Source of the DNA: Leucoraja ocellata
Taxonomy: Eukaryota
DNA length: 64,000 nt
Direction of reading: 5' to 3'
Assembly: GCA_036785375.1 (NCBI GenBank)
Contig: JAWMAR010000594.1
Span: forward strand, 744,001-808,000
Below the pieces are notes generated by a model. It made no database searches. It was not told the DNA's origin and worked only from the letters and a program-made list of their open reading frames with translations. The position numbers and the translations under genes were made by a program. This document shows, in pieces, positions 21,496-64,000 of the stretch. Every line of letters begins with the position of its first letter. The stretch's first letter is position 1.

Positions 21496-21499
21496 TGTG

Positions 21500-26276: not shown

Positions 26277-27529
26277 ATGGCTGCTAGACAAAAGCGACTC
26301 GCTAAGAGAACTGGTGCCTGCCCGACTCTCCCCGAGGAGGGTTCGATATCTGGGCGGCAGCCACTGGCGGCGGGACCGCTTTTTGAGCGCTCCCCAACAC
26401 CTGAAACCGAGCCGCTCCCTGTGCCGCCGATTTCAACACCGCGCACAGGGAGGAAGTCCACTAGAAAAACGGATCGGCCGGTTGTCTCCGATTCATCGGA
26501 GGAAGAGGGCGTGTCTCCCCCAAAAAAGAGGAGAGACAGCCGCCTGAGCTGCTTAAAGCAGCTCCTCGAGCAAATGCTCGACCAAGAGATGCAGGACAAG
26601 CATTCTCATGGAGGAAGGGCATATGCCTCCTCTACACTATCAGCACACCCCTCTGCTCCCTCTTTATTCGAGGCTAGCAAGGGAGGCCAGGGCTGGGCTG
26701 GCTTACAACAAGGGCAGGCGGACGATTGTAGGAGTATGCCAGGGGAGCAGGATCAAGTAGTGCTGCTGGGTGTCGTCGGCCGCTATGCGGCGCCTCCACG
26801 CGCAGGGAGACTACTGGAGCCCAGGATGGCATCCAGTATCAATCAGCTTTCAAATAAAGCCCTGCAGGAGAAGGTCCTCCTAGAAGCTCTAGAACAATAC
26901 ACAGCGCCGGGGAATTGTGAGGCGCTGAAAGTCAAGAGTGTCAACGGATAAATCTGGAGGCAGCTGGGTCAACAGATCCGCGGACAAGAGCTGAAAATGC
27001 AGCGCATTCTGAAGCTCCTCACAGCGGCTATCACCGCTTTCGCTCGTTCAACAGAAAATACTGAAATGACCACCTGCCAGCAGGATGTATTAGCACTCAT
27101 GTGTAATACACAGTATGAAATCAATAACCTGAGGCGAGATAACATAAGACCTGCCCTGAACCCCAAATATGCGGGGCTGTGCAAAGCCCCTGCAGCAGAA
27201 ACAGAGGCTCTGCTGTTTGGGGCCGACCTGACAAAAAGGCTAAAAGACCTGGAAGAGGCAGCTAAACCTGTGGGCCTCATGAGGGCAGGCCCGGGAACGA
27301 GCAGGACACCAACACCCAGCTGGCAGCACCCCTCGGCATCCACCAGTAAACGTCCACAACCAAGGACTGGTGAAAGCTCGGGGACCGCTTCATATTACCC
27401 CCAAAGGTCTTTTTTAGACATGGGCCCAGAGGGACCCCATGGAAGATGAGCCGCCCTTCGACAGCACCAACATCAGCATACCAGCAGAGCCGCGCCTACA
27501 AGAAGAAACAGCTCAGAAAACGGCAATAA
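26277..27529 (+). pseudogene. DIRS gag-like ORF1 (two frameshifts)
   Basis: ORF pieces 26085..26951 and 26997..27449 align to the intact gag at 42137 (PGNC.AL.V.SVN, LTA.ITA.AR, P.L.PK.AGLCK). Confidence 0.85.
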
Positions 27530-29466
27530 ACTTGGAGGTAGGTGGGTCTGGTTCCTGCCAGCATACACAGAACAAGGGTGCTCTACTAACAGGGGGGCGT
27601 TTACACTTGTTCAAAAAAGCTTGGGGTACTGTCACAAATAACAAATATATACTCAACAGTATTAGTGGATACAAAATTGAATTTAAAATGGGCATATTAC
27701 CACCGGTTCAGCATATACCCCAAAGGGTATTTTCCCCCTCTGAGAAAGAGAAGCGGGAAGGACAAGCTGAACTAGAAAGGCTCATGTTAAAAGGAATCAT
27801 TGAAAAGACCAGACATGAACCATTGGTATTTGTATCAAACATATTTACTAAAACTAAAAAAGATGGTGGATGTCGCATCATCATTGATCTAACATCACTA
27901 AATAAATCTGTTGAGTATATACACTTCAAAATGGAGACGTTTGTCACTGCCAGACAGCTGATCTCCAAAGGATACTTCATGGCAAGCATTGATATCAAAG
28001 ATGCTTACTATCTAATACCCATACACAAGGATCATTATAGATACCTAAAATTTATCTGGATGGGGCAACTATGGCAGTATAAAGCATTGCCTAATGGCCT
28101 AACCTTAGCCCCCAGATTATTTACAAAAATACTAAAAGTAGCCATGAAAATATTAAGAAAACAAAAGCATATAGTCATGGCATATTTGGATGATATCCTC
28201 ATATTACGGAAAACCAAGGAATTAGCTGTGGCAGCAGTTCTAGCTACAAAACAGCTCCTTGAAACACTGGAGTTCGTCCTACACCCAGATAAATCCAAAT
28301 TGAAGCCGTTAACTACCATGGATTACTTAGGCTTCACTATTAATTCAATCCATATGACTGTTACTTTGCCAAGGGAAAAAGTGGTTGCATTAGCACAATC
28401 ATGCAACAATTTAATAGTCAATAAACGACCAACAATTCGACAAGTTGCCAGAGTAATTGGAATGATTGTAGCAGCAATTCCAGCTACACAATTCGGACCT
28501 TTGCACTATCAAAATCTACTGAGAGCAAAGGTACAGGCACTACATCGATGCTCGGGTCATTATGACCGAAATATGTATTTACCCACTGAAGCTATATCAG
28601 AACTACAGTGGTGGGCAGACAATGTTTGGCACAGTTTCAGTCCTATTATCATCACCAATCCTAACTTAGTTATCAAAACAGATGCCAGTGCTTTAGGCTG
28701 GGGAGCAACTAACTCCATATCCAGCACAGGTGGCAGATGGACTAATTCAGAGTCATCGTTACTACACTCACTGGGCATCAACTATTTGGAAATGTTGGCC
28801 GCCTACTATGGGTTAAAAGCATATGCATCTAAAATGCAGCACGTGCATGTTAGGTTACAGATCGATAATACTACGGTGGTGGCTTACGTTAACCACATGG
28901 GTGGCATAAAATCATTATCATGCGACAAATTGGTCAATGCAATCTGGCTATGGTGTGTCAAAAGACATATTTGGTTATCAGCTGCCTATCTACCAGGTAA
29001 GCTAAATACAGTGGCAGACACCAGGTCACGAAAATTCAATGATAACATCGAATGGATGTTAGATCCAAAAATCTTTGCTAAAATTATTAAGCAATATGGA
29101 ACGCCAGATATCGATTTGTTTGCATCAAGATTGAATCACCAGTTACCTATGTATGTGGCTTGGGAACCAGACCCAGAGGCAGCAGCGGTAGATGCTTTCA
29201 CGCTGGATTGGGGAAATTTCTTCTTCTATGCTTTCCCTCCCTTCTGCCTCATCAGTCGGGTACTCCAGAAAATTCAGACTGACTCTGCTTCTGGAATTTT
29301 GGTCGTACCCGACTGGCCTACCCAACCATGGTTCCCAGTCCTTCACGACATGCTGGTCGAGTCACCAATGGTTTTCCAAAGCAACCCACAACTGCTGACT
29401 CACCCAGTATCCGGCATGAGTCACCCATGCCATCAATATATTAAACTCCTGGTTTGTAGGTTCTAA
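27439..29466 (+). CDS. DIRS pol: reverse transcriptase + RNase H + N6-adenine-methyltransferase-like domain
   Basis: 675-aa open frame; IDIKDAY, LPNGL, YLDD; RNase H TDAS/INYLE/IDN/ADTRSR; MT-like DIDLFAS...YAFPPF...WPTQPWF. Confidence 0.92.
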   Translation: MEDEPPFDSTNISIPAEPRLQEETAQKTAINLEVGGSGSCQHTQNKGALLTGGRLHLFKKAWGTVTNNKYILNSISGYKIEFKMGILPPVQHIPQRVFSPSEKEKREGQAELERLMLKGIIEKTRHEPLVFVSNIFTKTKKDGGCRIIIDLTSLNKSVEYIHFKMETFVTARQLISKGYFMASIDIKDAYYLIPIHKDHYRYLKFIWMGQLWQYKALPNGLTLAPRLFTKILKVAMKILRKQKHIVMAYLDDILILRKTKELAVAAVLATKQLLETLEFVLHPDKSKLKPLTTMDYLGFTINSIHMTVTLPREKVVALAQSCNNLIVNKRPTIRQVARVIGMIVAAIPATQFGPLHYQNLLRAKVQALHRCSGHYDRNMYLPTEAISELQWWADNVWHSFSPIIITNPNLVIKTDASALGWGATNSISSTGGRWTNSESSLLHSLGINYLEMLAAYYGLKAYASKMQHVHVRLQIDNTTVVAYVNHMGGIKSLSCDKLVNAIWLWCVKRHIWLSAAYLPGKLNTVADTRSRKFNDNIEWMLDPKIFAKIIKQYGTPDIDLFASRLNHQLPMYVAWEPDPEAAAVDAFTLDWGNFFFYAFPPFCLISRVLQKIQTDSASGILVVPDWPTQPWFPVLHDMLVESPMVFQSNPQLLTHPVSGMSHPCHQYIKLLVCRF

Positions 29467-42021: not shown

Positions 42022-42136
42022 ATCGCAAACAACGCATGGACGTGTCACACCTGGGGAGAACGTCCCCGTGAATGGGAGAGTAAAAAGCCGACGAACGGCA
42101 GGTAAGTGACTCTGCATTTCTAACTTTGTTGTAGGA

Positions 42137-43630
42137 ATGGACAGAGCACCTCGCAGGAAATCGGCGAGAAAGGAGCAGCAAGAAAGTCGGGAAGGAGCCG
42201 GGGACCTGCAGCAGCAGCAGCCGATGCCACAGGTGTTACCGATGGAGGAACCAGCTGTGCCCGACTTGAACCCCGCGCCGGCAAAATCGATTTCACGGCC
42301 GGGCGGGAAGGCAAAACAAAAGTCCCGTCACCTTAATACTGGTGCTGGGGACGCTGCTTATCAGTTCAAGAGAACTGACGAGGAGCTGCGGGAAATGGAG
42401 CAGCCAGGAGCGGCCAGCCCTACGGAGCTGGAAAGCCGCTACCAATGGATGGATGTCCAGCCGCCGGCGACAGGTGCTCGTGAGTACCGGGGCCGGGAAG
42501 GACGGCAGGAGAATATTGGGCGGCCAGGAGCGACCAGTGCAGGGAGGCATGGGGACCGGCTGCGGGAACCGCGAGCGACTAGTGCCCGAGTGCACGGAAG
42601 TCGGTTGGAGCGGCCCGGTAAGCACCCGCGATCGACTAGCGCCCTAGAGCGCGAAAGTCGGCTGGAGCGGCTGCTGGACGAAATTGTCCGAAGTGGCAGG
42701 CTCCGTCGGAGCGAGGATAGCCACGGTGGGCACAATGTAAGCCCCACAGCAGGTTCCCTTAAAGGGCTGCAAAATATATCAGACTCCTCTGAGGAGGATA
42801 TCGAATGTCTGACCAGCTCAGAGTCTGAGCAAGAGGTGGAACCGTTGTCTCCCATTGAAGGGAAGGAACGCAGCTTACTGGACATGGTGGGACAGTACTT
42901 CCAACAGGAGCAGACCGGCAGGAACCTCGAGGACAGGATGGCTGCAAGTATCGACTACATGTCCACACACCAGTTGCAGGCTAATACGATGGCTGAAGTA
43001 TTGGCAAGGCACTTACCACCAGGGAATTGTACTGCGCTGCATGTAGCCAGTGTAAACAGGTGTATCTGGAAGCATGTGGGGGGGGGTATTAGAAATCAGG
43101 ATCTTAAGGTCCAAAATGCCCTCAAAAGTCTCACAGCGGGGATTACAGCTTTGGCCCGTTCGTTTGAGAAAGTGCAGATGGATAATGACCAAAAGGATGC
43201 ATTAGCATTGTTCTGTAATGTACAGTTGGAATTGAATAATTTAAGAAAGGGAGCTATTCAGCCTGTGCTAGACCCTAAATTTGCCGGTTTGTGCAAGCAG
43301 AGGGATATAAAACCCCAAACCCTACTATTTGGTGGAGACTTGTCTAAACAAGTCAAAGAGTTGGATGAGGAGGCCAAGACATTGGGGCTGATAAGGGCAG
43401 CCAAAGGGTACCTAGGGAAGAGATTCCAACCCTATGGGCGTCCAAAGAAGGGTGGGCTCTATAATGCCACCAGGAATTGGAGAGAGAGGAGCCCCCAGCG
43501 GCAGCAGCGTCCTTTTTTAGGGTTTGGCCCGGGACGTCCGCCGTGGAAAATGCGGAAGCCAGTACATCAGCAGGCATCGCAACCTCAACATCAAGGGCCT
43601 CCAAATCCACGACCAAAAATAAGGAAATAA
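42137..43630 (+). CDS. DIRS ORF1 gag-like protein (497 aa)
   Basis: First ORF of the element; disordered repetitive N-terminus, helical core homologous to the other copies, basic C-terminus. Confidence 0.9.
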   Translation: MDRAPRRKSARKEQQESREGAGDLQQQQPMPQVLPMEEPAVPDLNPAPAKSISRPGGKAKQKSRHLNTGAGDAAYQFKRTDEELREMEQPGAASPTELESRYQWMDVQPPATGAREYRGREGRQENIGRPGATSAGRHGDRLREPRATSARVHGSRLERPGKHPRSTSALERESRLERLLDEIVRSGRLRRSEDSHGGHNVSPTAGSLKGLQNISDSSEEDIECLTSSESEQEVEPLSPIEGKERSLLDMVGQYFQQEQTGRNLEDRMAASIDYMSTHQLQANTMAEVLARHLPPGNCTALHVASVNRCIWKHVGGGIRNQDLKVQNALKSLTAGITALARSFEKVQMDNDQKDALALFCNVQLELNNLRKGAIQPVLDPKFAGLCKQRDIKPQTLLFGGDLSKQVKELDEEAKTLGLIRAAKGYLGKRFQPYGRPKKGGLYNATRNWRERSPQRQQRPFLGFGPGRPPWKMRKPVHQQASQPQHQGPPNPRPKIRK

Positions 43631-45576
43631 ATAAATTATCACCGATAACCATGGAGGTAGGTGAATCTGCGGCTCCGAAAGTTGTAGGGAGCACGGAAGT
43701 TGGAGGGGCATTGCAACTTCATTTGGAAGCATGGTGCAATATAACTATGGACAGATATATCCTTAGCAGTATTAAGGGATATCTGATAGAGTTTTTATAC
43801 AAACATAACCCTCCAGTACAACATACACCGGACAGAAAATATATACTTACAAAATTAGAACAAGCAAAAGCTCACATAGAAATTGAAAGGTTATTCAATC
43901 AAGGGGTAATTGAACAAACTAAACCTGAAAAACAGGAGTTTGTCTCTAACATATTTATTAGGAATAAGAAAGATGGGGGTTGTCGTGTGATTATTGATTT
44001 GTCAACACTTAACAAATTTGTGCAATATGTTCATTTTAAAATGGATACGTTTAGCACTGCTATAGACTTAGTGTCTAAAGGTTATTTTATGGCAAGTATT
44101 GATCTTAAGGATGCTTATTATACAATACCCATAAGAAATAGACACAGGAGGTTTTTGAAATTTAATTGGATGGGACAGCTTTGGCAGTATAAGGCTTTGC
44201 CAAATGGGCTTACGTCAGCGCCTAGGTTATTTACAAAAATTCTTAAACCAGCCTTGGCATTATTGCGACAACAAAATCATAGAGTAATGGCATATTTGGA
44301 TGATATTCTTATAGTGGGGAAAACTTATGAATTGGCATGTAAGGCAGTGGTCGCCACTAAGCAATTGTTTGAACACCTGGGGTTCATTATCCATCCAATT
44401 AAGTCTAAATTAACACCATCAACTAAAATGGATTACCTGGGGTTCACCATTAACTCAATTGATATGTTAGTGACTTTACCACTAGGGAAAGCCACAGAAA
44501 TACAAAAGGATTGCACAGAGCTTATTAATACCGTTAAACCATCCATTAGACGGGTAGCCAGAATGATTGGAAAAATTGTGGCTACATTTCCTGCCATACA
44601 ATTTGGACCATTACATTACCAAAATTTACAGAGAGACAAAATTAGAGCACTCAAAATTAACAGAGGCCATTTTGATAGGCCAATGGAGCTAACTATTGAA
44701 GCAATAAAAGAGTTACAATGGTGGGAACACAATGTGAAGTATGGCTCCAACCCAATAGTTATAGACAACCCGTCTGTGGTATTACAAACAGATGCCAGTG
44801 CAATTGGTTGGGGTGCAACGGATACCATCTCGAGCTGTGGAGGGAGATGGAGTATTCAAGAAGCTAACCTACTAAATACTAAGGGTATAAATTATTTAGA
44901 AATGTTAAGTGCATTTCATGGGCTTAAGTCTTTCTGCTCAGGCATGAATCAGCAGCATGTTAGATTGCAGATAGACAATACCACGGTGGTGGCATATATA
45001 AATCATATGGGTGGAAATATATCAATATCTTGTGATATATTGGCAAATTTAATTTGGCAATGGTGTATACAAAGGAATATTTGGTTATCGGCTACGTATC
45101 TACCAGGGATACTAAATTCAGTGGCGGACGCCAGGTCACGAAAATTTAATGAAAATACAGAATGGATGTTGAATAGAAAGGTCTTCGGGGAAATTACGGT
45201 GAAGTATGGAAGACCGGATATTGATCTTTTTGCATCCAGGTTAAATCACCAGTTACCTAGGTATGTATCATGGGAACCAGATCCTGGGGCAGAAGCTACA
45301 GATGCATTTTCACTGCACTGGGGGAAATGGTTAATATATGCATTTCCTCCTTTCTGCCTCATCAATCGGGTACTAAGGAAAATTCAACAGGATTCGGCAT
45401 CTGGGATTCTCATAGTACCTGATTGGCCTACACAACCATGGTTCTCGGTGATACAAGATATGGTTTTAGAACCATGTATGCACTTTAAACAAAGTCCGAA
45501 GTTGCTGGTACATCCGGTAACTCATGATAGCCATCCATGTTATAAAAATATTGCTTTGTTGGCTTGTAGACTTTGA
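43477..45576 (+). CDS. DIRS pol: RT + RNase H + methyltransferase-like domain (true start uncertain, see findings)
   Basis: IDLKDAY, LPNGLTSAP, YLDD; TDAS, INYLE, IDN, ADARSR; DIDLFAS, YAFPPF. Overlaps gag in the -1 frame. Confidence 0.95.
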   Translation: MEREEPPAAAASFFRVWPGTSAVENAEASTSAGIATSTSRASKSTTKNKEINKLSPITMEVGESAAPKVVGSTEVGGALQLHLEAWCNITMDRYILSSIKGYLIEFLYKHNPPVQHTPDRKYILTKLEQAKAHIEIERLFNQGVIEQTKPEKQEFVSNIFIRNKKDGGCRVIIDLSTLNKFVQYVHFKMDTFSTAIDLVSKGYFMASIDLKDAYYTIPIRNRHRRFLKFNWMGQLWQYKALPNGLTSAPRLFTKILKPALALLRQQNHRVMAYLDDILIVGKTYELACKAVVATKQLFEHLGFIIHPIKSKLTPSTKMDYLGFTINSIDMLVTLPLGKATEIQKDCTELINTVKPSIRRVARMIGKIVATFPAIQFGPLHYQNLQRDKIRALKINRGHFDRPMELTIEAIKELQWWEHNVKYGSNPIVIDNPSVVLQTDASAIGWGATDTISSCGGRWSIQEANLLNTKGINYLEMLSAFHGLKSFCSGMNQQHVRLQIDNTTVVAYINHMGGNISISCDILANLIWQWCIQRNIWLSATYLPGILNSVADARSRKFNENTEWMLNRKVFGEITVKYGRPDIDLFASRLNHQLPRYVSWEPDPGAEATDAFSLHWGKWLIYAFPPFCLINRVLRKIQQDSASGILIVPDWPTQPWFSVIQDMVLEPCMHFKQSPKLLVHPVTHDSHPCYKNIALLACRL

Positions 45577-46544
45577 AGGAACCTCTACGAGACATGGGGC
45601 TATCCAGTAGAACTGTGGATATGATCACAGCAGCGCAAAGAACGTCAACACATAAGCAATATTTAACTCACATTAGAAAATGGATAAATTACTGCCATTA
45701 TAATCATCTGGAGCACAGAGATAAGAATGTGCCGGCAGTGCTAGAGTTCCTCACCAGTCTGCACTACGAAGGATTGAGTTATAGCACAGTTAATACTGCC
45801 AGAAGTGCGTTATCAACCTTTTTGTGGCAAGGAACAGATAGTGTTTCAGTGGGATCTCATCCGCTGGTAATTAAACTGTTAAAAGGAATTTTCAACACCA
45901 GACCGCCTAAACCAAGATACACCCAGATTTGGGATGCTAGTGTGGTCCTCAACATGCTAAGGACTTGGTCACCGGCCACAGCATTGACTCTGGACATGTT
46001 GACTAGAAAAGTGGTTATGCTGATGGCATTGGTCACAGCACAGAGGGTCCAGTCACTGCAAAAGTTGAGACTGGATAGCTTCTCTATGGCGGCAGGACGT
46101 TTGGTCTTTGTAATACAGGATTTAATTAAACAAAATAGACCAGGATCAGCAGGACAGGTCATTGAATTTCTGGCTTACCCGGAGGACGAACGTCTCTGTA
46201 TTATGGAACATATTTTGTTGTACATGGAACGGACTAAGGCCATTAGAGGCAAAGAAATGGGGCTGTTAATCAGCTATAGGAAACCATACCACAGGGTGTC
46301 TACCCAGACTATTTCTCGGTGGATTAAATATGGATTAAGGAAGGCAGGAGTGGACACTAATATTTTTAAATCTCACTCCACCAGGGCGGCAGCTACATCC
46401 GCAGCGAAACGCCTTGAGGTCTCCATGGACCAAATCCTCAGGACTGCAGGATGGTCGTCGGAGAGGACATTTCAAAAATTCTATAATAAACCACTTAGTG
46501 GTGTAGAAACGTTTTCGCGGAAACTTTTAAGTTCCGTATTATAA
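45573..46544 (+). CDS. DIRS tyrosine recombinase (SAM-like N-domain + phage-integrase catalytic domain)
   Basis: Catalytic set present: R (AQRVQ), K (IKQNR), HxxR (HSTR), W (AGWS), Y (KFYNK). Confidence 0.95.
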   Translation: MKEPLRDMGLSSRTVDMITAAQRTSTHKQYLTHIRKWINYCHYNHLEHRDKNVPAVLEFLTSLHYEGLSYSTVNTARSALSTFLWQGTDSVSVGSHPLVIKLLKGIFNTRPPKPRYTQIWDASVVLNMLRTWSPATALTLDMLTRKVVMLMALVTAQRVQSLQKLRLDSFSMAAGRLVFVIQDLIKQNRPGSAGQVIEFLAYPEDERLCIMEHILLYMERTKAIRGKEMGLLISYRKPYHRVSTQTISRWIKYGLRKAGVDTNIFKSHSTRAAATSAAKRLEVSMDQILRTAGWSSERTFQKFYNKPLSGVETFSRKLLSSVL

Positions 46545-50270: not shown

Positions 50271-51296
50271 TGTTTGCATTTTTCAGTGTTAAAATGTGCT
50301 ATATTTAACAAGCTTTACCTGCCCAGGAATTGGTGAAGGGACATAGTAGGAGGGTTTACTCTATATTGAATTCTTACAATTCTTGTCCTTGACAAGATTG
50401 TACAAAAGGCACTATTTCCATGTGCAACTCATAATGTGCCTGATCTGGATATACAGTGCCCTCCATAGTGTTTGGGACAAAGACCCATAATTTATTTATT
50501 TGCCTCTGTACTCCATAATTTAAGATTTGTAATAGAAAGAAATCACATGTGGTTAAAGTGCACATTGTCAGATTTTTATACATTTTGGTTTCACCATGTA
50601 GAAATTACAGCTGTGTTTATACATAGTCCCCCATTTCAGGGCACCATAATGTTTGGGACACATGTCCTCACAGATGTTTGTAATTGCTCAGGTGTGTTTA
50701 ATTACCTCATTAATGCAGGTATAAGAGAGCTCTTGGCACCTAGTCTTTTCATCACCTTTGGAAACTTTTGTTGCTGTTTATCAACATGAGAACCAACGTT
50801 GTGCCAATGAAAGTCAAATAAGGCATTATGATACTGAGAAACAAGAATAAAACTGTTAAGAGGCATCAGCCAAACCTTAGGTTTACCAAAATCAACTGTT
50901 TGGAACATCATTAAGAAGAAAGAGAGCACTGGTGAGCTTACTAATCACAAAGGGACTGGCAGACCAAGGAAGATCTCCACAACTGATGACAGAAGACTTC
51001 TCTCTATAATAAAGAAACATCCCCAAACACCTGTCTGACAGATCAGAAACACTCTTCAGGAGTCAGGTGTGGATTTGTCAATGATCAATGTCTGCAGAAG
51101 ACTTAATGAACAGAAATATAGAGGTTACACTGCAAGATGCAAACCACTGGTTAGCGTCAAAAATAGGATAGCCAGGTTACAGTTTGCCAAGAATACAATA
51201 CAATACCATTTATTGTCATTTGAGCCTGTGAGGCTCAAACGAAATTCCGTTTCCACAGCCATACAAACAAAGACAATTTCCTACAGAAATACACAC

Positions 51297-51498
51297 TGTA
51301 ACAATAGGATTGTTTATTTAAGTACTGTTGTACAGGGGACTGTTTTAGAGGTGACACCGCGCTCGCGGCCCAGTTTTCAGATAACGTTACTAAGGCAGAG
51401 AGGTGACAACTGCACAAAGACAATAAAGTTCAAGTAAGCAAGACTGCTTTAATCGTCCATTATGTATCGTCCACATAGAGACAGAACATAATGAAACA
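51297..51498 (+). repeat. Gypsy 5' LTR
   Basis: TGTAA...AAACA ends, AATAAA at ~51422, directly followed by a PBS. Confidence 0.7.
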
Positions 51499-51516
51499 TG
51501 GTGGCAGCGGTGGGAT
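51499..51516 (+). promoter_or_regulatory. Primer-binding site (tRNA-Leu-like)
   Basis: TGGTGGCAGCGGTGGGAT, complementary to a tRNA-Leu 3' end including CCA, immediately after the LTR. Confidence 0.75.
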
Positions 51517-51635
51517 GGACGTCGAAAATTGTCAGAATTAACGAGAAAAGTGAAAGTTCAGCTAGCTAGCAGCAGGCTAACATTAGCCTTACAGAAGCCG
51601 GCGAAGAAAAAAAAAACAGCAGCTAGCTGACAGCG

Positions 51636-52364
51636 ATGGAAGGGCTAAAACCCCCTGGAACTTTGGTTTTGGACTACAACAACTTGGCGAAGTCATGGAA
51701 AAGTTGGAAGGAGTTCACACTGTACATAGACCTTACCATGCCAGACGCCGTAGAGACCACAAAAGTCAAGCTATTCAACTATCTCATCGGAGAAAAAGGC
51801 AGGGAACTTTGGGCAACTTTGTCGAGTGTTAGCCCTTCAGCGAGGACCACAGTGAGTTCAATGATCATACAGTTTGACGAGTACTGCAACCCAAAGGTAA
51901 ACGAGACTGTGGAAAGGTACCGATTCTTCATGAGGAACCAAGGATTGGATGAAAACGTGGACAGCTATGGAACAGACTTGAAAATACTTGCTAGTAGTTG
52001 CAACTTTGGGGACATTAGAGATTCATTGATTAGAGATCGACTTGTGTGTGGTACAAATAGCTCAGCACTGAGGGAGAGATTATTCAGGGAAGAGAAGCTG
52101 ACTCTTGAGACATGCCTGCACATTTGTAGAGCTACAGAGCTGTCAAGGGAGAATAGCAGAACACTGCAAGGACAGACAGTGGAGGAGGTACATGCACTGA
52201 AACAGGCAGAAGAGAGACAAAAAAACAATGAGATACTGTGCAAGTTTTGTGGTAGAACACACGAGAGGAATACAAAAAAATGCCCAACTTTTGGGAAAAA
52301 GTGTAAGAGGTGTGGAAAGGAAAATCATTTTGCAGCTCAGTACAGATCGAGACAAGAGCAGTAG
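51636..52364 (+). CDS. Gypsy retrotransposon gag (element truncated before pol)
   Basis: W..WKEF..Y, YCNPKVNETVERYRFF.R.Q, CNFG...DSLIRDRLVCG, C-terminal Zn knuckles CKFCG..H..C / CKRCGKENHFA. Confidence 0.85.
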   Translation: MEGLKPPGTLVLDYNNLAKSWKSWKEFTLYIDLTMPDAVETTKVKLFNYLIGEKGRELWATLSSVSPSARTTVSSMIIQFDEYCNPKVNETVERYRFFMRNQGLDENVDSYGTDLKILASSCNFGDIRDSLIRDRLVCGTNSSALRERLFREEKLTLETCLHICRATELSRENSRTLQGQTVEEVHALKQAEERQKNNEILCKFCGRTHERNTKKCPTFGKKCKRCGKENHFAAQYRSRQEQ

Positions 52365-53939
52365 GAAAACTAAGAATGTGCATGCAGTTACAAAACAGAC
52401 TAGTGACAGTGACTCTTATGAGGATGTCAACTGTATAACTGAAGCAAATAGAGAGGATGAAACTAAACCAGGTTAAAAACAGCCACAGTCTGTCTAAACA
52501 CTGCTGTAATTTCTACATGGTGAAACCAAAATATATTAAATTGCCTTTATTAAAATCTGACAATGTGCACGTTAACCACATGTGATTTTTTTCTATTACA
52601 AATCTCAAGTTGTGGAGATCGGAGGCAAATAGATAAATAATGGGTCTTTGTCCCAAACATGAAGAATGCTTTGCTCTGTTTCTATTGTGTACTTCCCTAG
52701 TTCTGGGTATATTTGATGAGACAATGCAAAGGTATACACCTTGCTTTTTAGTTTTTTTCATTAGACTCACTCAATTGCATTGAGCATTGCAAAAATGGAA
52801 CAAAACAAATATTGCTTGGGTGAAACTCAGAATTAAACTCTTGTTTAGCATTTCAGATTCCAGAAAATCTTTGTTGAAACAAACTTCCAGTCAAATATGA
52901 GTCATATTAGATGCAATGTGAGGTTACTCAGCAATGCTTTATCGTCTCCCTTTCAATTAATTCTTTTGTCTCCGTTCTTATCCGGATCTTTTTGGTTATC
53001 TTGCCTCCTACTTTTTTTAAAGTAATTTGATGGGAGGTTAAAATTATTCTTTTTCATTTAACTGCAAATTCCTCAAGTGTTGTTAGTGCTATATTTGGCC
53101 TGGAAGCTTTGATAATATAATCCAGAGATGTTCTACCTGAGGAGTGTTTAATAGGGCAGGGACGGAGGGTTTTATTCTGCATTAAACCTAGGATATACCT
53201 CCAGTACAAGATAGTTTTACTTTGTATCAAACAGGTACTGTACCCAACATAACGGCGTCTGACACGAGAGGCAAGGGATTTTTTTCTGCATCTAATTTGC
53301 GCTGTACCTGACCTAACGGTAACTGAACCTGAAATGAAGGGTGGAATAATAAATAGTCAGAGTTACACAGCATGGAAACAACGTGTCCTTGCTGACCAAG
53401 ACCGCAGCTGCCTGCACCTAGTCATAACCTATCTTTGGTCATAACCCTCTCTAAACCTCTAATGTTCTTTGTCTTCATACTACATGGTGCACACAACAGA
53501 ACCGAGAAAAGGGTGTAGAAAGATACACAGTTATGGTTACATAGTTACCTGATGTAATCTGATATTTAAAGTCTCTGATGGATTATTCTAAAAAAAGATC
53601 CTTTTGTTGCAGAGTTCTAAATTGCCTGGAAACCTGTTCCTGTACACTGGAAGGACTGTGGGTCTACACCATGTAGCAAGAATGCCACCTGCTGTTGGAG
53701 GGTGAGCAGCAGACTTGGTTAAGTTGATCAAAGCTCTCACATTTTGAGTGGGTTTATGTAAATGCTGTTTGCTTGCTATTCCTGGGTAGTGTGGGGGAGA
53801 GGTTGAAATAAGCCCCTCAATGAAACAACTTCTGTAATCATCAACTGCTTGTAATTTGAGTGTGCCATTTAATAAACACCAAATTGCAGAACATTTGTAA
53901 CTGAATCCATGGCAATGATGTGCTCAGCAGCATTTGCCC

Positions 53940-55850
53940 TCTGGAAATTCAAAGTGCTGGGCGATGGGAGAACCATGGGAGAACAAAAGACTATTTGCAG
54001 CCATGTTGTAACAGGCCTAGAAGTGAGCTGTCTAGAGGGCTGCAACTTTATAGAGCTGCAAGAAGTGTTTTCGCGAAAGACTATTCCAGCTAATAAAAGT
54101 AACATCCCACTACAAAAGGATGTGGACAAGTGGCCTCATCTGGAGCGAGTGCAAATCCCTCATATCAATACGGAAATAGGTCTGCTGATTGGGCCAAATG
54201 TGCCTAAAGCAATGGAACCAGAAGAGGTCATCAGGAGTGTAAATGATGGGCCTTACGCTGTAAGGCCAATCCTTGGATGGACAGTGAACGGACCCCTAAG
54301 GGAGGGTTACTGCGAAGCTACAAGAGGTGATGCGGCAAATGCCATATCAAATAGAATACCTGTGGCCAAACTATGGAATCAACAGTTTAAATATGACTTT
54401 CCTGAAGGTGGCCAAGAAGGTGGAGATGTCAAAAGAAGACCTTCAGTTCATGGACAATGTGTCACAGTCCACCAGGCTGGTAGAGGGACATTACAGTATT
54501 GGTTTAGCACTGAAGAACAAAGAACGTCGAATGCCCAACAACCGGGTTATAGCAGAGCAGCGTGCCTTGAACCTAAAAAGGAAGCTTCTCAAGAATCATT
54601 CATTCCGTGAAGATTACATCACCTTCATGACTGACATGATTGACAAGGGCTATGCAATGAGGGTTCCTGATGCAGACCTCAGCCGCAATGATGGTAAGGT
54701 TTGGTACATTCCCCATCACGGAGTGTACCATCCTAAAAAAACACAAGATCCGTGTGCTATTTGATTGTGCCGCTTCTTATCAGGGAGCCACACTGAATGG
54801 GGAGCTTCTTCAGGCTCAGTCGAGCAGCCATGCCAGAAGAATCCAAACACCCTGCCATCCTGGGTAAGGACCAGCGGGTGTCAGAGCTCATCCTGCAGGA
54901 GATCCACCAAGACGTAGGTCACAGTGGACGCAACCATGTTTTATCCAAAGATGGCAGACCTGCCACAAAACAGAGTGATAGCAGATGAACTGCCCTTTAC
55001 TGGAACTGGAGTGAACTATTTCGGTCCTTTTGAAGTCAAGCGTGGAAGAGCTATTGTAAAGAGAAACTGTGTCATCTTCACCTGCTTAGCAATTCGAGCT
55101 GTTCACCTGGAGATGGCAGCTTCCCTTGACAATGACTCGTTCGTTAATGCAATAAGAGGTCAAGTTGTAAAGCTGCGTTCGGACAATGGGACCAATTTGT
55201 TGGGGCTGAGCGAGAGCTCAAAAAGGCTCTCCACAAGTGGAACACTTCAAAAATAGAGGACACCTTGCTTCTGTGAGGCATTAAGTGGATGTTCAACCCC
55301 CCTACTGCCTCTCACCAAGGAGGAGTATGGGAGCGTTTAATCAGGTCCATCAGAAAAATCCTCAATGCCACCTTAAAGACGCAGAGACTGAATGAGGAGA
55401 GCCTTCAAACGTTTCTTTGTGAGGCTGAGGCCATCATAAATAGTCATCCCATTACTACACCTTCAGCGATCCAAACGACCTTGAGGCGCTCACCCCAAAC
55501 CACCTCCTACTATTGAGGACTAAGCCATCCATACCTCTGGGAGTCTTTCAGAAAGAAGACCTCTACACACGCCAAAGGTGGCGGCAGGTCCAGTACATGG
55601 CAGACTTATTTTGGACGCGCTGGGTGAGAGAGTACCTGCCTGAGCTCCAAACACGGCAGAAGTGTCACGAACCTTTGTGCCTGGGGACATTGTTTTGCTT
55701 GTGGACGAGACTGCACCAAGGAACTCATGGGTCATTGGCAGGGTCATCCAGACAGTGCCAGATGAACATGGTCGTGTTCGTGTGAAGACTAAGACCAGTG
55801 AACTAGATAGACCCATCGCCAAGGTTTGTCTTCTTGTAGAAGCAGTTTGA
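53940..55850 (+). mobile_element. BEL/Pao pol remnant (peptidase-adjacent region, RT start, large deletion, integrase)
   Basis: IGLLIG.N.P, WYIPHHGVYHPKK..IRVLFDCAA, MADLP..RV..PF..TGV.YFGP, FTCLAIRAVHLE, SDNGTN, GGVWERLIRS, FW.RW..EYL. Confidence 0.9.
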
Positions 55851-57944
55851 GATGAGGCAGTGCTCTCCTACGGAATGTCAAGTGCTAGCGACATGTTTGG
55901 AAATAAATCAGTTTTTGTTCAACTTAACCACGGAGTCAAGTGGATCACTGGAATTACGGTACATCGGTACGATTCGCATAAGCCGTGATTAGCAGCTAGT
56001 TCATTCTGCAGTAACACCATTGTTTCAAGTCTTCATGTCTTGGTATATTTTGATGACCAACAGGCATGGTTCCATGTGTAAACGCTTCAGATATTGGTAT
56101 AAAATTATCTTTGTCCAAATTGGATATCTCCATACTCGTAATATAATGACTCCTGCCCTCTTTATCGTTAGTCATGGTAATCAAATCTTAGTCTCTTCTC
56201 CTGCGATGCTCAGCCTTCTCGACAGGTTTTCTGTGCAAAAGTTAGTTGAACTTCCGTGATCCAGAAAAGCATATGTTTGCAACACTGTATTCGTGTTACT
56301 GTTCCTTACCTGTACTGGTAAGATAGAAAAATTACAAGCTTCAATCCAATATGAGCAGTTACTTGAGGCGAGGTGATAGCATCACTAATAGTTGGCTTGT
56401 TCTTCTGTTCCATTTGCTCCGGTGCATATTCTTCTATTTGCTCTGATAGCTCATCATCTGTTTGTTCCAGTTCTTCTTCTTCCCAATGCTCTGGTAGTTC
56501 TTCTTCGATGTGAAGTGCTTCAGGATGATATTGCCTGCACTTATAACAAATCATAGGACTCTTACAGTCTCTCACCATGTGTCCTTTTTCAAATATCCAA
56601 AACAGATTTCCTTCTCCTTCAAGAAATCCATGTTGTCTTCATATTCTTTCATCTTGAATCTTCGACACTATCTTACGGTGTGACTAACTTCATCACATAA
56701 CAAACAAAATACTATTAGCTTGCTAGTAGATACATTTCCTTTCATTCCATCTATCGTTTCCACAGGTATGGTTGTGATAGCAAAAATACTTCTCTTAGGT
56801 TCTGATCTTTCTTCAGTTTGGTAAAGGTAGAACCGTTGTTAGTTGCAATCAGATTGTAATCTTCAATAGTCCCGTAGTGTGACTCTAACATGTACCATAC
56901 TTCATTGTCCAAGAATTCCACCAGGTCTGGTAGCCTGGCTACTTGGTTCCTCTCATCCATTATTTTGCCTGCTTTATATCTCCACATATGGCTGAGATTT
57001 TTCATCGAGCTGCAACAATCTCTCAGAAATATTGCATAATCACTCAATGCCTCCCCATCTTCCGGCTTGATTTCTTTCCAAGCATGGGCCTTCTCCATGA
57101 AAGCGTTAGCAATTCTGTTAATTACCAAAACGTTTTTTATGTAATCTTCTCACCTTTTTATAGCCATGGCTGCTGGCTCCTTTTGACAACTTTCTACAAG
57201 TACCTTCACCAGAAATCGTAAGCGTTCCTTTTCATCCGTAGCTTTTGTTTCTAATACTTCTTCTAATGCCCTTACGAAAGCTTCATACTGCAAAGGATCT
57301 CCACCATATGTAGGAATTTCTGCTGGTGGTAGAATGAGAGAGGTATTTTGTCGAGCTATGAATTCAGTTTGACTTTTCACCAATGCCAATAACCCATCCT
57401 GATAACCTTGGCTTGGCTCCACCTGTTGAGAAACAGGCCTTTGTGATTCATATTGGCTTGCTTGTGTCTGTGCACCAGGGCTCGGACAAGCTATTGGTTC
57501 GTCTCGAGTATCCACAGATGCTCCATTAGTAATTTGTTTCATCCAGCACCCATTTGCTGAGATGAAGTTTCACCCATCTTCCTCTGTTGCAATAGGTTTT
57601 CAAAGCCATGAAATACGGTGGACCTCAATTGTGGAATTGATTAAACTGCTAATTCACCGAGCAATCTTTCTTCCCAAATTGGAGTTCATCACCTTCGATG
57701 TTCTCGAACTGCATCTTGACACCTCACTTTCCAGTAGCTCCTTCTTTGCTTTGGCCACCGCTATCTTTGTGTCTAGTTTCAGTTGTTCCTCCCGTCGCCT
57801 CAGCTCTTCTTTTTCCCGCTAAATTTCATCTCATGGCCTCCGCTTCAATTGAGAGAGCGGCTAGGTCAGCTTCAACTCCCAATCGAGCAGAAGCCCTTGA
57901 TACCAAACTGGCTGAAGATCAAACTGGCTGAAGAACCAAATTTA

Positions 57945-58440
57945 CATCCTGAACTATCTGAGCTGCTACTGCGGCCTCTGCTGCTGCTGTCGGCTTTTTT
58001 GGCCGCAGACTTTGCAGGCAGTGAAGAAGACGTGGCCTTTGCCATTCGTAGTTGGGCTACAGGGGTCTTCAACTGAGGCACTTCGGCGCTTGATGATTCT
58101 TCAGTACTTTCAGAATCTGACTCGCTGAAACTGGCCGCAGGCTTCTGAGTGGCAGCAGCCGCCTTAGCCAGCGTTCGTCTGTGCAATTGTTGTGGCAGGT
58201 TTTAGGGGTGCCTCTTCATCACTACTGTCTGAGCAGTCGTCTGACAAGTCACTGAATTTCCATTTTACTCACTCCTGCAGCTGGTTTCTTCTTGGTCACA
58301 CCTGCTTTTCCATTCTGAACTTTGCGAGGTGGTACAGCACTGTACGAACCTTGTTGTGCTTTGGTTTTCGCAGGAGACTCATCATCTGAACTGTCAGACT
58401 CTTCACTGCTTGAACTTACGTCTTCCATTCTGGCACCTTG
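57945..58440 (-). other. NOLC1-like: NOLC1/Nopp140-like acidic-serine/basic repeat segment within BEL gag
   Basis: SSSSEESDSSDDESPAKTKAQQGSYSAVPP..NGKA..; KAAAATQKPAA..SESDSES; LPAKSAAKKADSSS. GSYSAVPP recalls NOLC1 GPYSSVPPP. Confidence 0.6.
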
Positions 58441-59321
58441 TTGCTTCGCACTTCCAGCTACTAAGTTCGTAAATTGTAGTATAATTTCAGATAACCATTT
58501 CTCTGCCTTATCCACAAAACCATTGAATATCTACAACCTGTCTTCTTCCCATTGGGTGTGTCTTCTGCGTTCTTTCCGAGGTGGCTGTGAACACAGCAGT
58601 ACTTCTTGTCTCTTGCCAACCTCCTGGCAGAGGTTCAATAGTTGGTACATATTAGATTTTGCCTGTTTCTCAATTAATCTGGTAATCTGTTTCCATATTT
58701 TGTTTCTCTCCTTCTCGGTCTCTTTCAAACAGGTAGCTTGTGAATTATCTGTTTCTTCTCAAGCTAGAACTTGGCCTTTCTCAGTGAGTTTAAGTTGTCC
58801 AATTGGTCTTTCATCACCACCTCGTGGTTCCTCAGGCGTAGCACTTTCTTCATCTTCTGGATCCATAATTTTAAAGAGGTCTTGGCAGATCGCCAAGTCT
58901 TTAAATTTAACGAACAGAGTTTTCTGCATGTAGTTCTAATTTTGTTTTGTTAACATTTCCATCAGAACCATAACAAACTGATATTGTAGAGAACATCTCT
59001 CCAACATCCATGGGCTAAAAGATGACGATAATTCAAAAGGAATGCGTATTTATCAAAAGATTCAAAACAATCCAAAGTCGGTCTCGTTTCTCCAGCCAAA
59101 CTAAATAATTTATTTTTACTCACAATTCTGTGAGATATCTTCAGATAAGTCTTGTTACTGTCAATAGACCTCAAGGCTTTCTCAGGCCAAGATCTATTAT
59201 CTTCAGTTCCTCGGCAGGAACCTGACTTCTGGCCTAAACCTCTCCGAGATCTTAGCCAAATCTTCTGTCCCACTCTCTGGTACTGGTATTCACCCCCGCC
59301 CAGAGGTCTCCTTTGACTTAA

Positions 59322-59800: not shown

Positions 59801-60056
59801 GTAGCATCTTTATTCACGATAGGAAAAAACATACTCGTTTTGTAAACGGTTTTTGGAAGCAGATTTGAGTCAGATTTTGCAATATAATTGTCAATAGGGA
59901 ACAATTGTTTTAAGAAATATTTCCCAAATATTACACAGAAATTTATTTTTTCTCTTCAAGTGGATCCCATTTTGTGAGAACGCCCCTTCATGTTTTCCTT
60001 TCTAATAACTGTTGAAGATTATTTTTACTTTTTATTTTCAGATTCTATTCTGAGCA

Positions 60057-60320
60057 TGGGTAAACGATTTGAAAGTGGTGCTAGCAAGCGCAAGAGACTT
60101 GAAAATGATACGGTAAAGAATTTAAGACCAATCACTGCTTTCTTGGATCAGCCACTGACAGAGGCAGCAAGTGTCAGCAGTGAAGCAGATACATTGATAC
60201 CAAACACAAGGAAATCAGTGTGGTGGAGCTATCCAGCCAACTACTAGCATTCGACCTGAAGAAAACCTTCCTGAAACAGAAACAGCGAAGCAGGACGTGG
60301 AATAGCAAGCTGAATATGAA
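60057..60320 (+). pseudogene. hAT-type transposase N-terminal fragment
   Basis: MGKRFESGASKRKRLE...ITAFL start, typical of hAT/ZMYM1-like transposases; abuts the Tx1 element. Confidence 0.45.
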
Positions 60321-63300
60321 CCAGCAGAGACCCAGTGGTTCCTCTCACCCCAGAAGAAGTTGACCAATCTCCTCTGTAACATGGTTATAAAATAAGAGGA
60401 CGGGACCATAGTGGCCATCCGGTACCACAGCAGAGAGGCCACCAGCTGGTTTATAACTACAGCCCTGCCCCGGTAAGAGAGCAAACCAAGTAGGCCAGAC
60501 CAACGTCCCAGCCGGGCGACCACCTTCGCCTCCAGCTCCTGTCAGTTCGCCGGCCACCCCCCCTCATTGGGACTCAGGTAGACCCCCAGATATAGGAGGT
60601 GCGTGGTACTCCACGCAAAACCTGCCATCTCCTCCGGCAGGGAGTCCACCTGTCACCCACCCACCAAGAGACCATAACACTTCCCCGTTGATCTTGGCGG
60701 AGGAAGCAGCCGAGAAAACCTGCTGGCACTCACGCATCCTCCGCAGGTCAACAGGGTCGGTGAACATCAGAATTACATCATCGGCGTAGGCCGAGAGGAC
60801 CACCTCCATCCCCGGCCCTGGTAAAGCCAGGCCTGTCAACCACCTCCGGAGAAGGCACAGGAAAGGCTCAACACAGATGGAGTACAGCTGGCCAGACATG
60901 GGACATCCCTGACGAACCCCCCTCCCAAAGGGAATGGGGGCCAACAAAGAGCCGTTGTTAACAAGGCATTCTGCAGCAGTGTATAAAAGTCGGACCCAGG
61001 CCACAAAGTGTGGTCCAAATCCGAACGCCTGCAGAGTCCTCAGAAGGTAGTTGTGCTGCACCCTGTCGAACGCCTTCTCCTGGTCGAGGGAGAGAAAGGC
61101 GACTGACTGACCAGCCCCCTGGGTCAGATGGATCAGCTCCCGGACCAGATGAATATTGTCTTGGATGGACCGGCCCGGGACTGTGGTCGACTGGTCAGGG
61201 TGGATCACCTGGGACAGCACGGGGCCCAGGCGATTCGCCAATGCCCGTGCAAAAACTTTATAGTCCGTGCTTAGGAGAGAGACCGGGCGCCAGTTCTTCA
61301 AAAGGCGGAGATCGCCCTTCTTGGGCAGCAGGACAACAACTGCCCTGCGCCACGAGAAGGGCATCTCCCCAGTCGCCAGGCTCTCCTCCAGGACCTTCAT
61401 ATAGTCACTCCCCAGGACATCCCAGAAGGCTCTTGGGTACTCCACAGTCAGCCCATCCAGCCCTGGAGACTTGTCCCCCTTGAGCTGGTGCAGGGCACCA
61501 GTCAACTCCTCCAGAGTTAGGGGATCATCCAGGTGTTCAGCCACATCATTGCACACAGCAGGTAAGCCCTCCCACAGGACCTCTTGCGCCCTCCCACTCG
61601 ATGTGCCTGCCGAGAACAGAGTCTTGTAGAAAGACCGAACCGAGGCACCAATGCTCTCTGGATCTGTGACAGAGGAGCCATCATCCTCAATTGTATTGTA
61701 TTGTATTCAAATTTATTGTCATTGTCTCAATTTGAGACAACGAAATGAATTTCCCTTACAGGCAGTACCATATAAAAATCACAAAAAAATAATAAAAATA
61801 AATAATAAATAAATAATAAAACATATTAAAAATAAAATTGAAATTGAATTAAAAAATTTTAAAAAGCACAAACACAGAAAGTCCACGACACAACATAACA
61901 TAAATGGCACCAAGGTGAGGAAGGCACCATAGTCCAGCCAGCCTCCCAGCCTTCCGAGCACCCGCAGTCGCCGCCCCGGGTGGCCCGATGTTCAGGCCCT
62001 CACGCCGGGCTGGTGGAACGCCGACGCCGAACCCCGACGGTGAGCATCCTCCTCCTCAGCGGCCCGGACCTCCTGATCAGCCGCCTCCCGCTGCCGGAGT
62101 CTGCAGCTCCCGAGTCCACAGGCCGAGCTGGGCAGAGTCGCAGGACCCCGCGCTGTCCATCAGCGCCGCCCGCGTTGGGAGCTCCGCAAACCGCCGCTCC
62201 AGGATGTTGGTGCAGCAGGTCCAGCACTCCGGGCTCCAGACGGCGACCCCCGGTAAGGCATCGCCAGCCCCGCGATGTTTCAGCGCTGTCCTGCCGCTGC
62301 TGGAGCTCCAGTCGATCCCGGCAGGAAAGGCCGCGCCAATCCAGGTAGGTAGGCCGCTGTGGGGGGAGGGGGGGGGGAGCGAGGACGCGACTCGAATAAT
62401 AGTCGCGTCCTCACCAGGAAGCGGCTGAAGGACGGTATCCCCCGCACCGTGCCCTCTTCCCCCACATAAAAACACAAAAAAACACTTTAACATAACTAAA
62501 TAAACAAAAAAAAACAAAAAGATACCGGGCTGTAGGTGGAGGCTGCTGGCACCAGCGCCACCGGAAGTAACTCAACTCAACTCAACAAGCTGCCTGCGGG
62601 CTCCTCGCCCCTTCTCCAGAGAAAAAAAGGGGGAGGCGCAGTCCAGATCGTGCAACATCTGGACTCGCGACCTTACATACGCACCCCGGGACCACCTAAG
62701 CTGCAAGTCCCTCAGTGCTCCCTTCTTCTCCTGGTACTCCTCCCACACACACGAAGCCCCACCAGTCTGATCCAGACGTGCCTCCGAGTCGAGCAACTCT
62801 CTCTCAAGCCGTCCGATCTCAGAGTCTCGCCCCTTGGTCGACCCCCTCGCGTAGTCCTGGTAAAACAGACGGACGTAGGCCTTCCCCACGTCCCACCACT
62901 GCCTTAGGGAAAGGAAACGCCGCTGCCTTTCTCTCCACTTCGCCCAGAACTGCCTGAATGAATCCTGGAATCGGCGATCCTCCAACAGCTGGCTATTAAA
63001 ATGCCAGTACGCGGACCCAGCCCGTGTGTGCATCGGGATAAAATCCACTCGCACAAGGCAATGGTCCGAGCATGGTGCCGGCTGCATGGAGGCCGCCGAA
63101 ACACAGGAGACCTAGGCCTTGGACACGTATAAATGATCAATACGGGAACCACCACCCTCAAACCTGTACGAGAAGGCATTAAGAGTCGGGATGGAAATTC
63201 CGCCAAGCATCTACCAGCTCAAAAGAGTCCACCATCTCCCTTAAAGTATTTACTGCACCCGGGTCACGCTGAACGCCAGAGCGAACTCTTGTCTCGAGGG

Positions 63301-64000
63301 CACAATTAAAATCTCCCCAAAGGAAAACACACTCCCCACGGTTGATAGTATTCAACAACGTGGTCACTTCCCTTGTTAACCGCGTCTGCATTACGCCGAG
63401 CACGCCATCCAAGCGCACGGCCAGATACAGCAAATGGCCTGGTACATTGTCCTGCACTTTAAGGATCTCCGGCTGGAAAGATGGGGCCAACAGCAAGGCC
63501 ACTCCACTCGAATTGGAGCTGAGATGACTCATGTAGACCCCCCCTTCCCACTCCAGGAGCCAGGTGGGTTCATCACTAGCCACAGTGTCTGGAGAGCTCA
63601 CCGCATACCTCCCGTCCCTGAGCACTGAGAGATGGTGAAACCTACGGAGAGACCCCCTGCCCCCATTGATATTCAGGCTGGCTATAGTGAGCTTCATTTT
63701 GAAAGTACACTAGATCTTTTACCCAACCCCGGTGAAGGATTGGAGCCGCCCCTAACCTTCTGCCCTCTCTTTGGGGCCTTAAAAAGCTCTTGGAACTGGC
63801 GCCTCTCATTTCTTATTAGCCCCGCCTCAATCCCCTTCTTCTGAAAGATGGCATGAATGGACTGCATGGGCGCACTCAGATCCGACCAGCGGTCGACAGC
63901 CAAATCCACCTTGTTCCTACTCCCTCTAGTCCTTTAAGAACTTCCGAAGTTCCCAGACTTCGACAAGTCGAGACACGGGGCCGCGGGTGGAGCAGTCCGT
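60320..64000 (-). mobile_element. Tx1-clade non-LTR retrotransposon (ORF1 end, ORF2 endonuclease + RT), decayed and 3'-truncated
   Basis: LTIASLNING, GDFNC, SDH, YWHFNSQLL, WWDVGK; KSPGLDGL..E, NWRPVSLL..DYK, LDQEKAFDRV, GVRQGCPMS, AYADD. Confidence 0.92.
61691..62570 (-). mobile_element. GC-rich SINE-like retroposon with Rex1-type 3' end and (TACAA)n tail, inserted in Tx1 ORF2
   Basis: Tail ttcgttgtctc...gacaatgacaataaa..(aatac)n; flanked by ctcaa on both sides. Confidence 0.7.

Follow-up and report, generated by a model that had tools for sequence, protein, structure and literature searches.

Probable capture of a host mRNA fragment, most likely from NOLC1, within the gag of a BEL/Pao-like retrotransposon subfamily

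The element described here is best read as a decayed copy from a subfamily of BEL/Pao-type LTR retrotransposons that carries a partial retrocopy of a host mRNA, acquired by LTR-mediated retroposition and most likely derived from the central repeats of NOLC1/Nopp140. For this reading as a whole we estimate a probability of about 0.72. The window, i.e. the entire 64-kb stretch of DNA that was analyzed, is repeat-dense animal DNA. The original prediction had placed the foreign sequence at 57945-58440; this location was right, but the true segment is slightly narrower and covers 464 nt. The element and its segment are organized as follows, in minus-strand order:

58417..58870, minus strand: N-terminal part of gag, a helical region running to ..QQGARMED and interrupted by stops, with only an approximate upstream boundary (tblastn with P0001, and frame reading).
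58416-57953, minus strand: foreign segment of 464 nt, which replaces 14 codons of the BEL/Pao-like gag linker.
58299..58416, minus strand: captured piece 1, with an acidic-serine block, SYSAVPP and NGKAG (RNA depth 106-133 over 58297-58419; loose ends at 58416 and 58299).
58109..58305, minus strand: captured piece 2, with KKKPAA, SDSSDEEAP and AKAAAATQKPAA (RNA depth 26-78; frame reading).
57953..58108, minus strand: captured piece 3, with EESSS, SLPAKSAAKKADSSS and SSSSDSS (RNA loose end behind 58108, 51 reads).
57904..57934, without strand: tandem duplication just past the segment, by which the gag frame is broken (Tandem Repeats Finder, 1.9 copies, 100% matches).
57681..57918, minus strand: gag resumes with the SRASARLG block and a coiled coil (tblastn with P0001: 57918-57829 at 80% and 57830-57681 at 62% identity).
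55996..57680, minus strand: rest of the decayed element, i.e. gag core, zinc knuckle and protease-like region (zf-CCHC E 0.007, below cut-off).

The decayed gag thus extends from ~58870 to 56000 on the minus strand and is followed by the protease-like region. On the N-terminal side, residues 1-79 of the gag protein P0001 align to 58638-58402 with 68% identity (tblastn, E 8e-31). Neither RT nor integrase was found for this truncated copy, a self-blast of the window showed no LTR pair, and Pfam gave no BEL-family match for its gag, the zinc knuckle alone appearing below cut-off. The element has 39% identity (E 7e-13) to a neighbouring BEL-type pol fragment, located at 53876-55850 on the plus strand and containing a protease-adjacent region, the start of an RT, an integrase and DUF5641 (E 3e-9). 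DUF5641, which we take to be a marker of BEL/Pao, is carried by this neighbour, and the neighbour is homologous to the studied copy; from this homology and from its motifs, the copy is classified as probably BEL/Pao-like. The plus-strand fragments were also considered as the pol of the studied element itself, and this was rejected: because the protease-adjacent region is duplicated at 39% identity without a DNA match, they belong to a second BEL-type element, which lies tail to tail with the first and from which much of the RT is missing.

Other elements populate the window. Related long-ORF elements are located at 42110-46544 (+), 26064-29466 (+), ~11000-15000 (-) and ~20200-21500; the first contains ORFs of 506, 703 and 324 aa and looks nearly intact, and an ORF of 682 aa lies at 27418-29466. 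We presume that these are DIRS-type tyrosine-recombinase retrotransposons. At 50469-52659, 112-nt inverted repeats enclose transposase fragments that we take to be Tc1-like, with a nested, presumably gag-like ORF of 245 aa (51627-52364, weak zinc knuckle). Directly upstream of the BEL copy, a decayed and, we assume, L1/Tx1-like element (59978-63709, minus strand) retains endonuclease and RT ORF pieces.

All motifs that had been named for the captured sequence are present on the minus strand where they had been placed, spread over three frames. Frame reading gives DKAEKWLSE followed by SSSSEESDSSDDESPAKTKAQQGSYSAVPP in one frame, with the codons of GSYSAVPP at 58350-58327, then SDSSDEEAP in a second and SLPAKSAAKKADSSS in a third frame, and finally ASARLGVEADLAAL and the REEQLKLDTK coiled coil. 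The first block is indeed continuous with the gag frame, and its ORF, given earlier as 58249..58515, extends from stop to stop over 58530-58249. The caution that this copy is frameshifted was justified as well: captured piece 2 contains two breaks, at about 58255 and 58170, and the duplication lies just after the segment. Among the NGK motifs, the first alone reads in the donor frame; an NGK near 58040 was considered as a further donor-frame motif and discarded as off-frame (RNA loose end at 58027). The GC content of the segment is 0.51 versus 0.40-0.46 in the gag flanks, and its 151 codons include 35 S, 24 A, 16 K, 11 E, 11 D and 10 P. No second copy of the segment was found within the 64-kb window. 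With its own GC content, its single occurrence in the window and an RNA match at the DNA level, the pattern exceeds chance. At least three non-contiguous pieces of donor mRNA make up the segment (loose ends 58299/58305 and 58108), and piece 2 may itself consist of more than one.

A protein search with the ORF at 58530-58249 returned one relative among 224 candidates, P0001, which belongs to a seven-member cluster. In P0001 and the six other members, MED is joined to SRASARLG by a short Ser/Arg linker and the segment is absent; on the segment's two sides, the identity of P0001 to the window is 68%, 80% and 62% (tblastn). The coiled coil of these segment-free proteins (P0001-P0007) is expanded, with repeated QEEE/RR units, and is ~50 aa longer than in the window; the N-terminal region of gag therefore tolerates changes in length. 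Reads or contigs mapped on 57600-58800 for four of the 24 listed runs (DNA runs X1, X3 and X10; oligo-dT RNA run X24), and all figures given here from the mapping tables (variants, indels, joints, loose ends and pieces) hold among the rows listed. Joints skipping ~476-510 nt are present in all three DNA runs and in 3 RNA reads among the joints listed; they run from ~57912-57944 to 58421-58424, and by eye their loose ends resemble the P0001 linker. Because the empty-site contigs and P0001 cross directly, the 464 nt took the place of 14 gag codons, and the event is a replacement, not a pure insertion. A short Ser-rich gag linker had been expected to be the part replaced, in agreement with the 14 missing P0001 codons and with the empty-site loose ends in 3/3 DNA runs.

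The segment matches an expressed transcript. Within the segment, the RNA reads of X24 reach a mean depth of 87, compared with 10 in the gag flanks. A search of run indexes listed no RNA run with the sequence, which says nothing either way, the RNA evidence having come from a raw run that was mapped. Among 603 RNA reads mapped on 57600-58800, a fraction of 0.88 continue into unlike sequence; 127 reads do so at 58416, with an agreement of 0.98, and 101 reads at 57949, with an agreement of 0.99. By eye, the host continuation, visible over loose ends of 30 letters, reads AKAAAATAKE upstream and SESEEEKPKGK downstream. Because the RNA reads depart from the window sequence at both ends of the segment into further K/A/P- and S/E-coding sequence, the donor is regarded as an expressed host mRNA. 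An absence of DNA-level homology had been feared, but RNA reads do match the segment at this level; the gene name comes from no database. RNA alleles are fixed, and in DNA they are confined to single contigs of low depth, the pattern that one host gene would give. Among 40 of 224 rows, 25 differences were classed: 17 between host and family, 6 private to this copy, and 2 mixed ones that were set aside. Nine of the 17 host-versus-family differences are synonymous, compared with 23-30% expected (p 0.006-0.039), an excess that confirms the reading frame of the donor. The same excess was rejected as a sign of selection on the element, since the difference is assignable to no branch and may be the host's.

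The donor is probably NOLC1. The defining feature of Nopp140 is a set of repeats in which acidic-serine blocks alternate with K/A/P-rich ones and which CK2 phosphorylates (PMC8336889), and the composition of the segment fits this definition. A human NOLC1 peptide printed in 10.64898/2026.09.21.753330 and the sequence of piece 3 plus host continuation look alike by eye: SLPAK, DSSS, SDS and S-EEEEEK follow in the same order with roughly the same spacing. QNGK occurs in piece 1 as well as in human and hamster NOLC1 peptides given in PMC11843875, PMC12284463 and PMC13012654. Database searches named no donor, blanks that are weak evidence for short low-complexity queries: word-index protein searches gave 0/74 and 0/1642 candidates at E<=10, a HMMER search of representatives yielded 3 repeat proteins, all of them unrelated, Atlas twice gave no usable match, PDB sequences twice gave 0, Pfam gave nothing above cut-off on the segment, and metagenome and viral collections gave no relative. 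A GPYSSVPPP motif had been ascribed to vertebrate NOLC1; PYSSVPPP was not found in the main texts and supplements searched. Composition and the ordered peptide match speak for the donor originally proposed, the missing database match against it. Based on low-complexity resemblance and one human peptide, the gene name is a likely one.

The points at which donor and element meet are consistent with a switch between RNA templates:

58416..58419, minus strand: 5' switch point, where empty-site gag and host mRNA have 4 nt in common; frame kept (RNA loose end 58416, 127 reads).
58299..58305, minus strand: internal junction between pieces 1 and 2, with 7-nt microhomology, in frame (69 reads end loosely before 58299 and 75 behind 58305).
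57949..57952, minus strand: 3' switch point to gag, with a microsimilarity of 3-4 nt; frame kept (101 RNA reads end loosely before 57949).

Microsimilarity is present at both outer junctions and at the internal one, its lengths (4, 3-4 and 7 nt) having been determined by eye from loose ends against the window. DNA loose ends lie at 58421 (12, 9 and 21 contigs in X1, X3 and X10) and, in all 3 DNA runs, behind 57913/57918. No poly(A) tail or target-site duplication was found at the junctions. The flanking element is discontinuous, with part of its ORF replaced, and no LTR pair was found in this truncated copy. Sense orientation and junction microsimilarity are as template switching predicts, and the idea of a capture by this route is supported. 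A spanned intron is suggested at ~58192: in 3/3 DNA runs, the piece that carries the host alleles stops at 58192-58193, and the RNA alleles at 58182, 58184 and 58191 occur in no DNA contig. The contig end at 58193 was rejected as proof of an intron, because a 32-nt stretch without listed differences could break the assembly graph, and filtering could have the same effect.

The origin of the segment may be explained in other ways. A convergent low-complexity expansion of the linker, without host origin, would build on a native gag linker that is itself Ser-rich, but it is hardly conceivable: a host transcript matches the segment at the DNA level and its reads extend into non-element coding sequence at both ends, which already refutes convergence, unless the transcript is itself element-derived. 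The donor could also be some other nucleolar gene rich in serine, acidic residues and lysine, captured by the same route; TCOF1/Treacle, for example, carries similar repeats, the segment is of low complexity, and no database match names the donor. We consider such a gene unlikely in view of the order of motifs shared with the printed NOLC1 peptide and of QNGK, which piece 1 shares with NOLC1 of human and hamster. Quite unlikely, too, is an entry at the DNA level, in which a LINE-made retrocopy, or a cDNA patched into a break, was amplified by the element. The window is full of LINE-type elements, and microsimilarities of 3-4 nt are short and fit microhomology-mediated DNA repair equally well; against this stand the lack of poly(A) and target-site duplication at the junctions, the loss of element sequence at the site, the sense orientation with both ends in frame, and a pattern that matches the criteria for LTR-mediated retroposition in the available text of PMC5131818.

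The capture, presumably LTR-mediated, was followed by amplification. Summed contig depth over the segment amounts to 18-32x that of the host-allele contig and to 0.11-0.14 of the flanking gag depth; this sum is not a copy number and is taken only to suggest copies in the tens, within a family that numbers hundreds. With many copies under three organism labels, the segment is not the one-off insertion that had been feared. At 58235, for example, 12, 11 and 7 contigs differ from the window copy. At sites such as 58224, 58245, 58246, 58267 and 58276, the RNA reads all agree on a single letter. Among the variant rows listed, this letter is found on a single low-depth contig in X1 and X3 (9.74 and 19.5) and, in X10, on a single contig (80.6) at 3 of the 5 sites, with none at 58245. 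Most of the remaining DNA depth shares the window letter at host-diagnostic sites, 58276 likewise. Because the copies share alleles against the host, a single capture is assumed, and the data point to one capture with subsequent amplification.

Contigs that cross the borders of the segment are few. With at least 31 letters on each side, the 5' junction is bridged by 3 of the 24 listed pieces (X1 records 2-4, ~9-12% diverged) and the 3' junction by one (X3 record 19); record 21 of X3 and record 11 of X10 narrowly miss this length. For organism D, the link to gag rests on the joint from 57913 to 58299. An X10 contig joins gag to the interior of the segment and leaves it at 58299, the place of the internal junction (window 57913-58299); a second joint, 57918-58132, is common to X1 and X3. 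These joints suggest a longer first capture and several deletion lineages. Over 58205-58359, contigs with 0 differences from the window are present in X1 (organism A) and X3 (organism B), and because this very copy seems to occur in both, these organisms are not independent lineages; X1 may be the sample from which the window comes. The copies of the chimera, roughly tens in number, are ~9-12% apart.

Both outer junctions keep the gag frame, as do both resolved internal junctions. The naive chance of a kept frame is 0.11 for two junctions and 0.012 for four, values that are lower bounds, since repeats favour same-frame joints. Of the mapped depth, ~70% in X1 and X3 and 36% in X10 depart from this copy at its first break. 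As for the second (~58170), among the indel rows listed, one X10 contig alone differs (depth 115 of 967), and none in X1 or X3; this frameshift seems common to most copies among these rows. Changes private to this copy are synonymous in 2 of 6 cases, and the host-versus-family indels near 57966 and 58023 are frame-neutral. Because one frameshift of the segment appears common to most copies, spread probably took place in trans. The simplest history comprises an in-frame capture, an early frameshift and trans spread, and the segment is most likely neutral cargo. The original prediction that Gag could gain a working condensate domain is not supported so far, since the ~58170 frameshift seems to be widespread among the indel rows listed.

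A functional fusion would require that an autonomous subfamily expressed the in-frame Gag-NOLC1 chimera, and that CK2-dependent condensate or nucleolar behaviour aided its spread. We regard this as doubtful. The frame kept at the outer and resolved internal junctions, a loss limited to 14 gag codons, the majority of X1 and X3 depth (and a third or so of that in X10) without the first frameshift, the deviating X10 contig at the second, and the frame-neutral indels all fit such a role, and CK2 phosphorylation targets Nopp140 to Cajal bodies (PMC8336889). On the other hand, most copies seem broken in gag, X1 and X3 deviating nowhere at the second break among the indel rows listed; microhomology between repeated coding motifs favours same-frame joints; frame-neutral indels and synonymous excess may lie on the host branch; and the segment holds at least 3 short repeats, compared with about ten in Nopp140 (PMC8336889, available text). 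Equally doubtful is the broader scenario that an autonomous vertebrate BEL/Pao lineage used the in-frame, CK2-phosphorylated NOLC1 domain for condensing or for entering nucleoli or Cajal bodies, and that the spread across several species began there, with frameshifted passengers following later. A benefit at the RNA level – as a silencing shield or as a source of small RNAs against the host gene – would account for spread despite a common frameshift and has a precedent in the telomeric elements of Drosophila (PMC13534243); it is very unlikely nonetheless, because segment-bearing copies are a minority (depth ratio 0.11-0.14) and the donor is not a silencing gene.

For the neutral capture, we propose the following course. 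In a virus-like particle, reverse transcriptase would have jumped from the element RNA to a co-packaged abundant mRNA and back again at short matches. Further jumps or deletions would then have removed internal parts of the donor, and the chimera was presumably in frame at the beginning. A frameshift probably arose early, and the lineage, defective in gag, would from then on have been carried along mainly as a passenger of intact relatives, to a final share of about a tenth of the family's mapped depth.

A classical parallel is provided by the gag-onc fusions of acutely transforming retroviruses, in which host coding sequence was fused in frame to gag by template switching and which are helper-dependent; in these fusions, downstream genes are usually missing and growth is affected, whereas here gag resumes after the segment. 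LTR-mediated retroposition has been described across animals, including a mosquito retrocopy flanked by BEL18_AG, with re-amplification as non-autonomous elements (PMC5131818). In the cases of this study, as far as its available text goes, a partial host mRNA likewise replaces part of an internal ORF without poly(A), the copies depart from the parent gene in common positions, re-amplification is non-autonomous, and microsimilarity at the switch points has a median of 6 bp, compared with 3-7 nt here. The Drosophila cases are young, two of them having multiple sites of insertion; the present one is older, has roughly tens of copies under three organism labels, lost 14 codons and is in frame at both ends. 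Crocodilian ERVs captured KIT-ligand and nectin3 in multi-copy form and with purifying selection (PMC4299795). There, too, one capture of a host mRNA was multiplied into several copies found across species, and with KIT-ligand no element domains were lost; but those ORFs are whole and separate, located between pol and env or replacing env, and not a disordered repeat fragment inside gag. Fragments of the host genes nxf2, piwi and aub are known from Drosophila telomeric retrotransposons, with a small-RNA function (PMC13534243). As here, a host mRNA fragment is present at ~90% identity in a retrotransposon family; those elements are non-LTR and have donors from the silencing pathway, however. 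In the available text of PMC3118150, env capture is the only capture mentioned.

The central repeats of Nopp140 resemble the segment in their alternation of acidic-serine and K/A/P-rich blocks and in the order SLPAK..DSSS..SEEE-K (PMC8336889; 10.64898/2026.09.21.753330). The segment differs from Nopp140 in that it consists of internal pieces only, without terminal domains and with a broken frame, and is named by no database match. No report of a NOLC1 capture by a retrotransposon was found in the literature searched, which covered few subscription journals. The mechanism itself is already published (PMC5131818), and this case is unreported in the literature searched; it stands out by how little was lost, by a reading frame maintained at its two ends within gag, by its age and by the number of its copies.

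For annotation, the tens of NOLC1-like fragments in these genomes would have to be regarded as cargo of the element, and they can disturb read mapping for the real gene. The locus represents a natural record of mRNA capture, in which the empty site, the donor transcript, both switch points and the derived copies are all visible, and in which order capture, internal deletion, frameshift and spread took place can be traced in public genomes. Should there be open-frame copies under selection, the family would provide a rare example of a retrotransposon capsid protein that borrows a condensate domain from its host.
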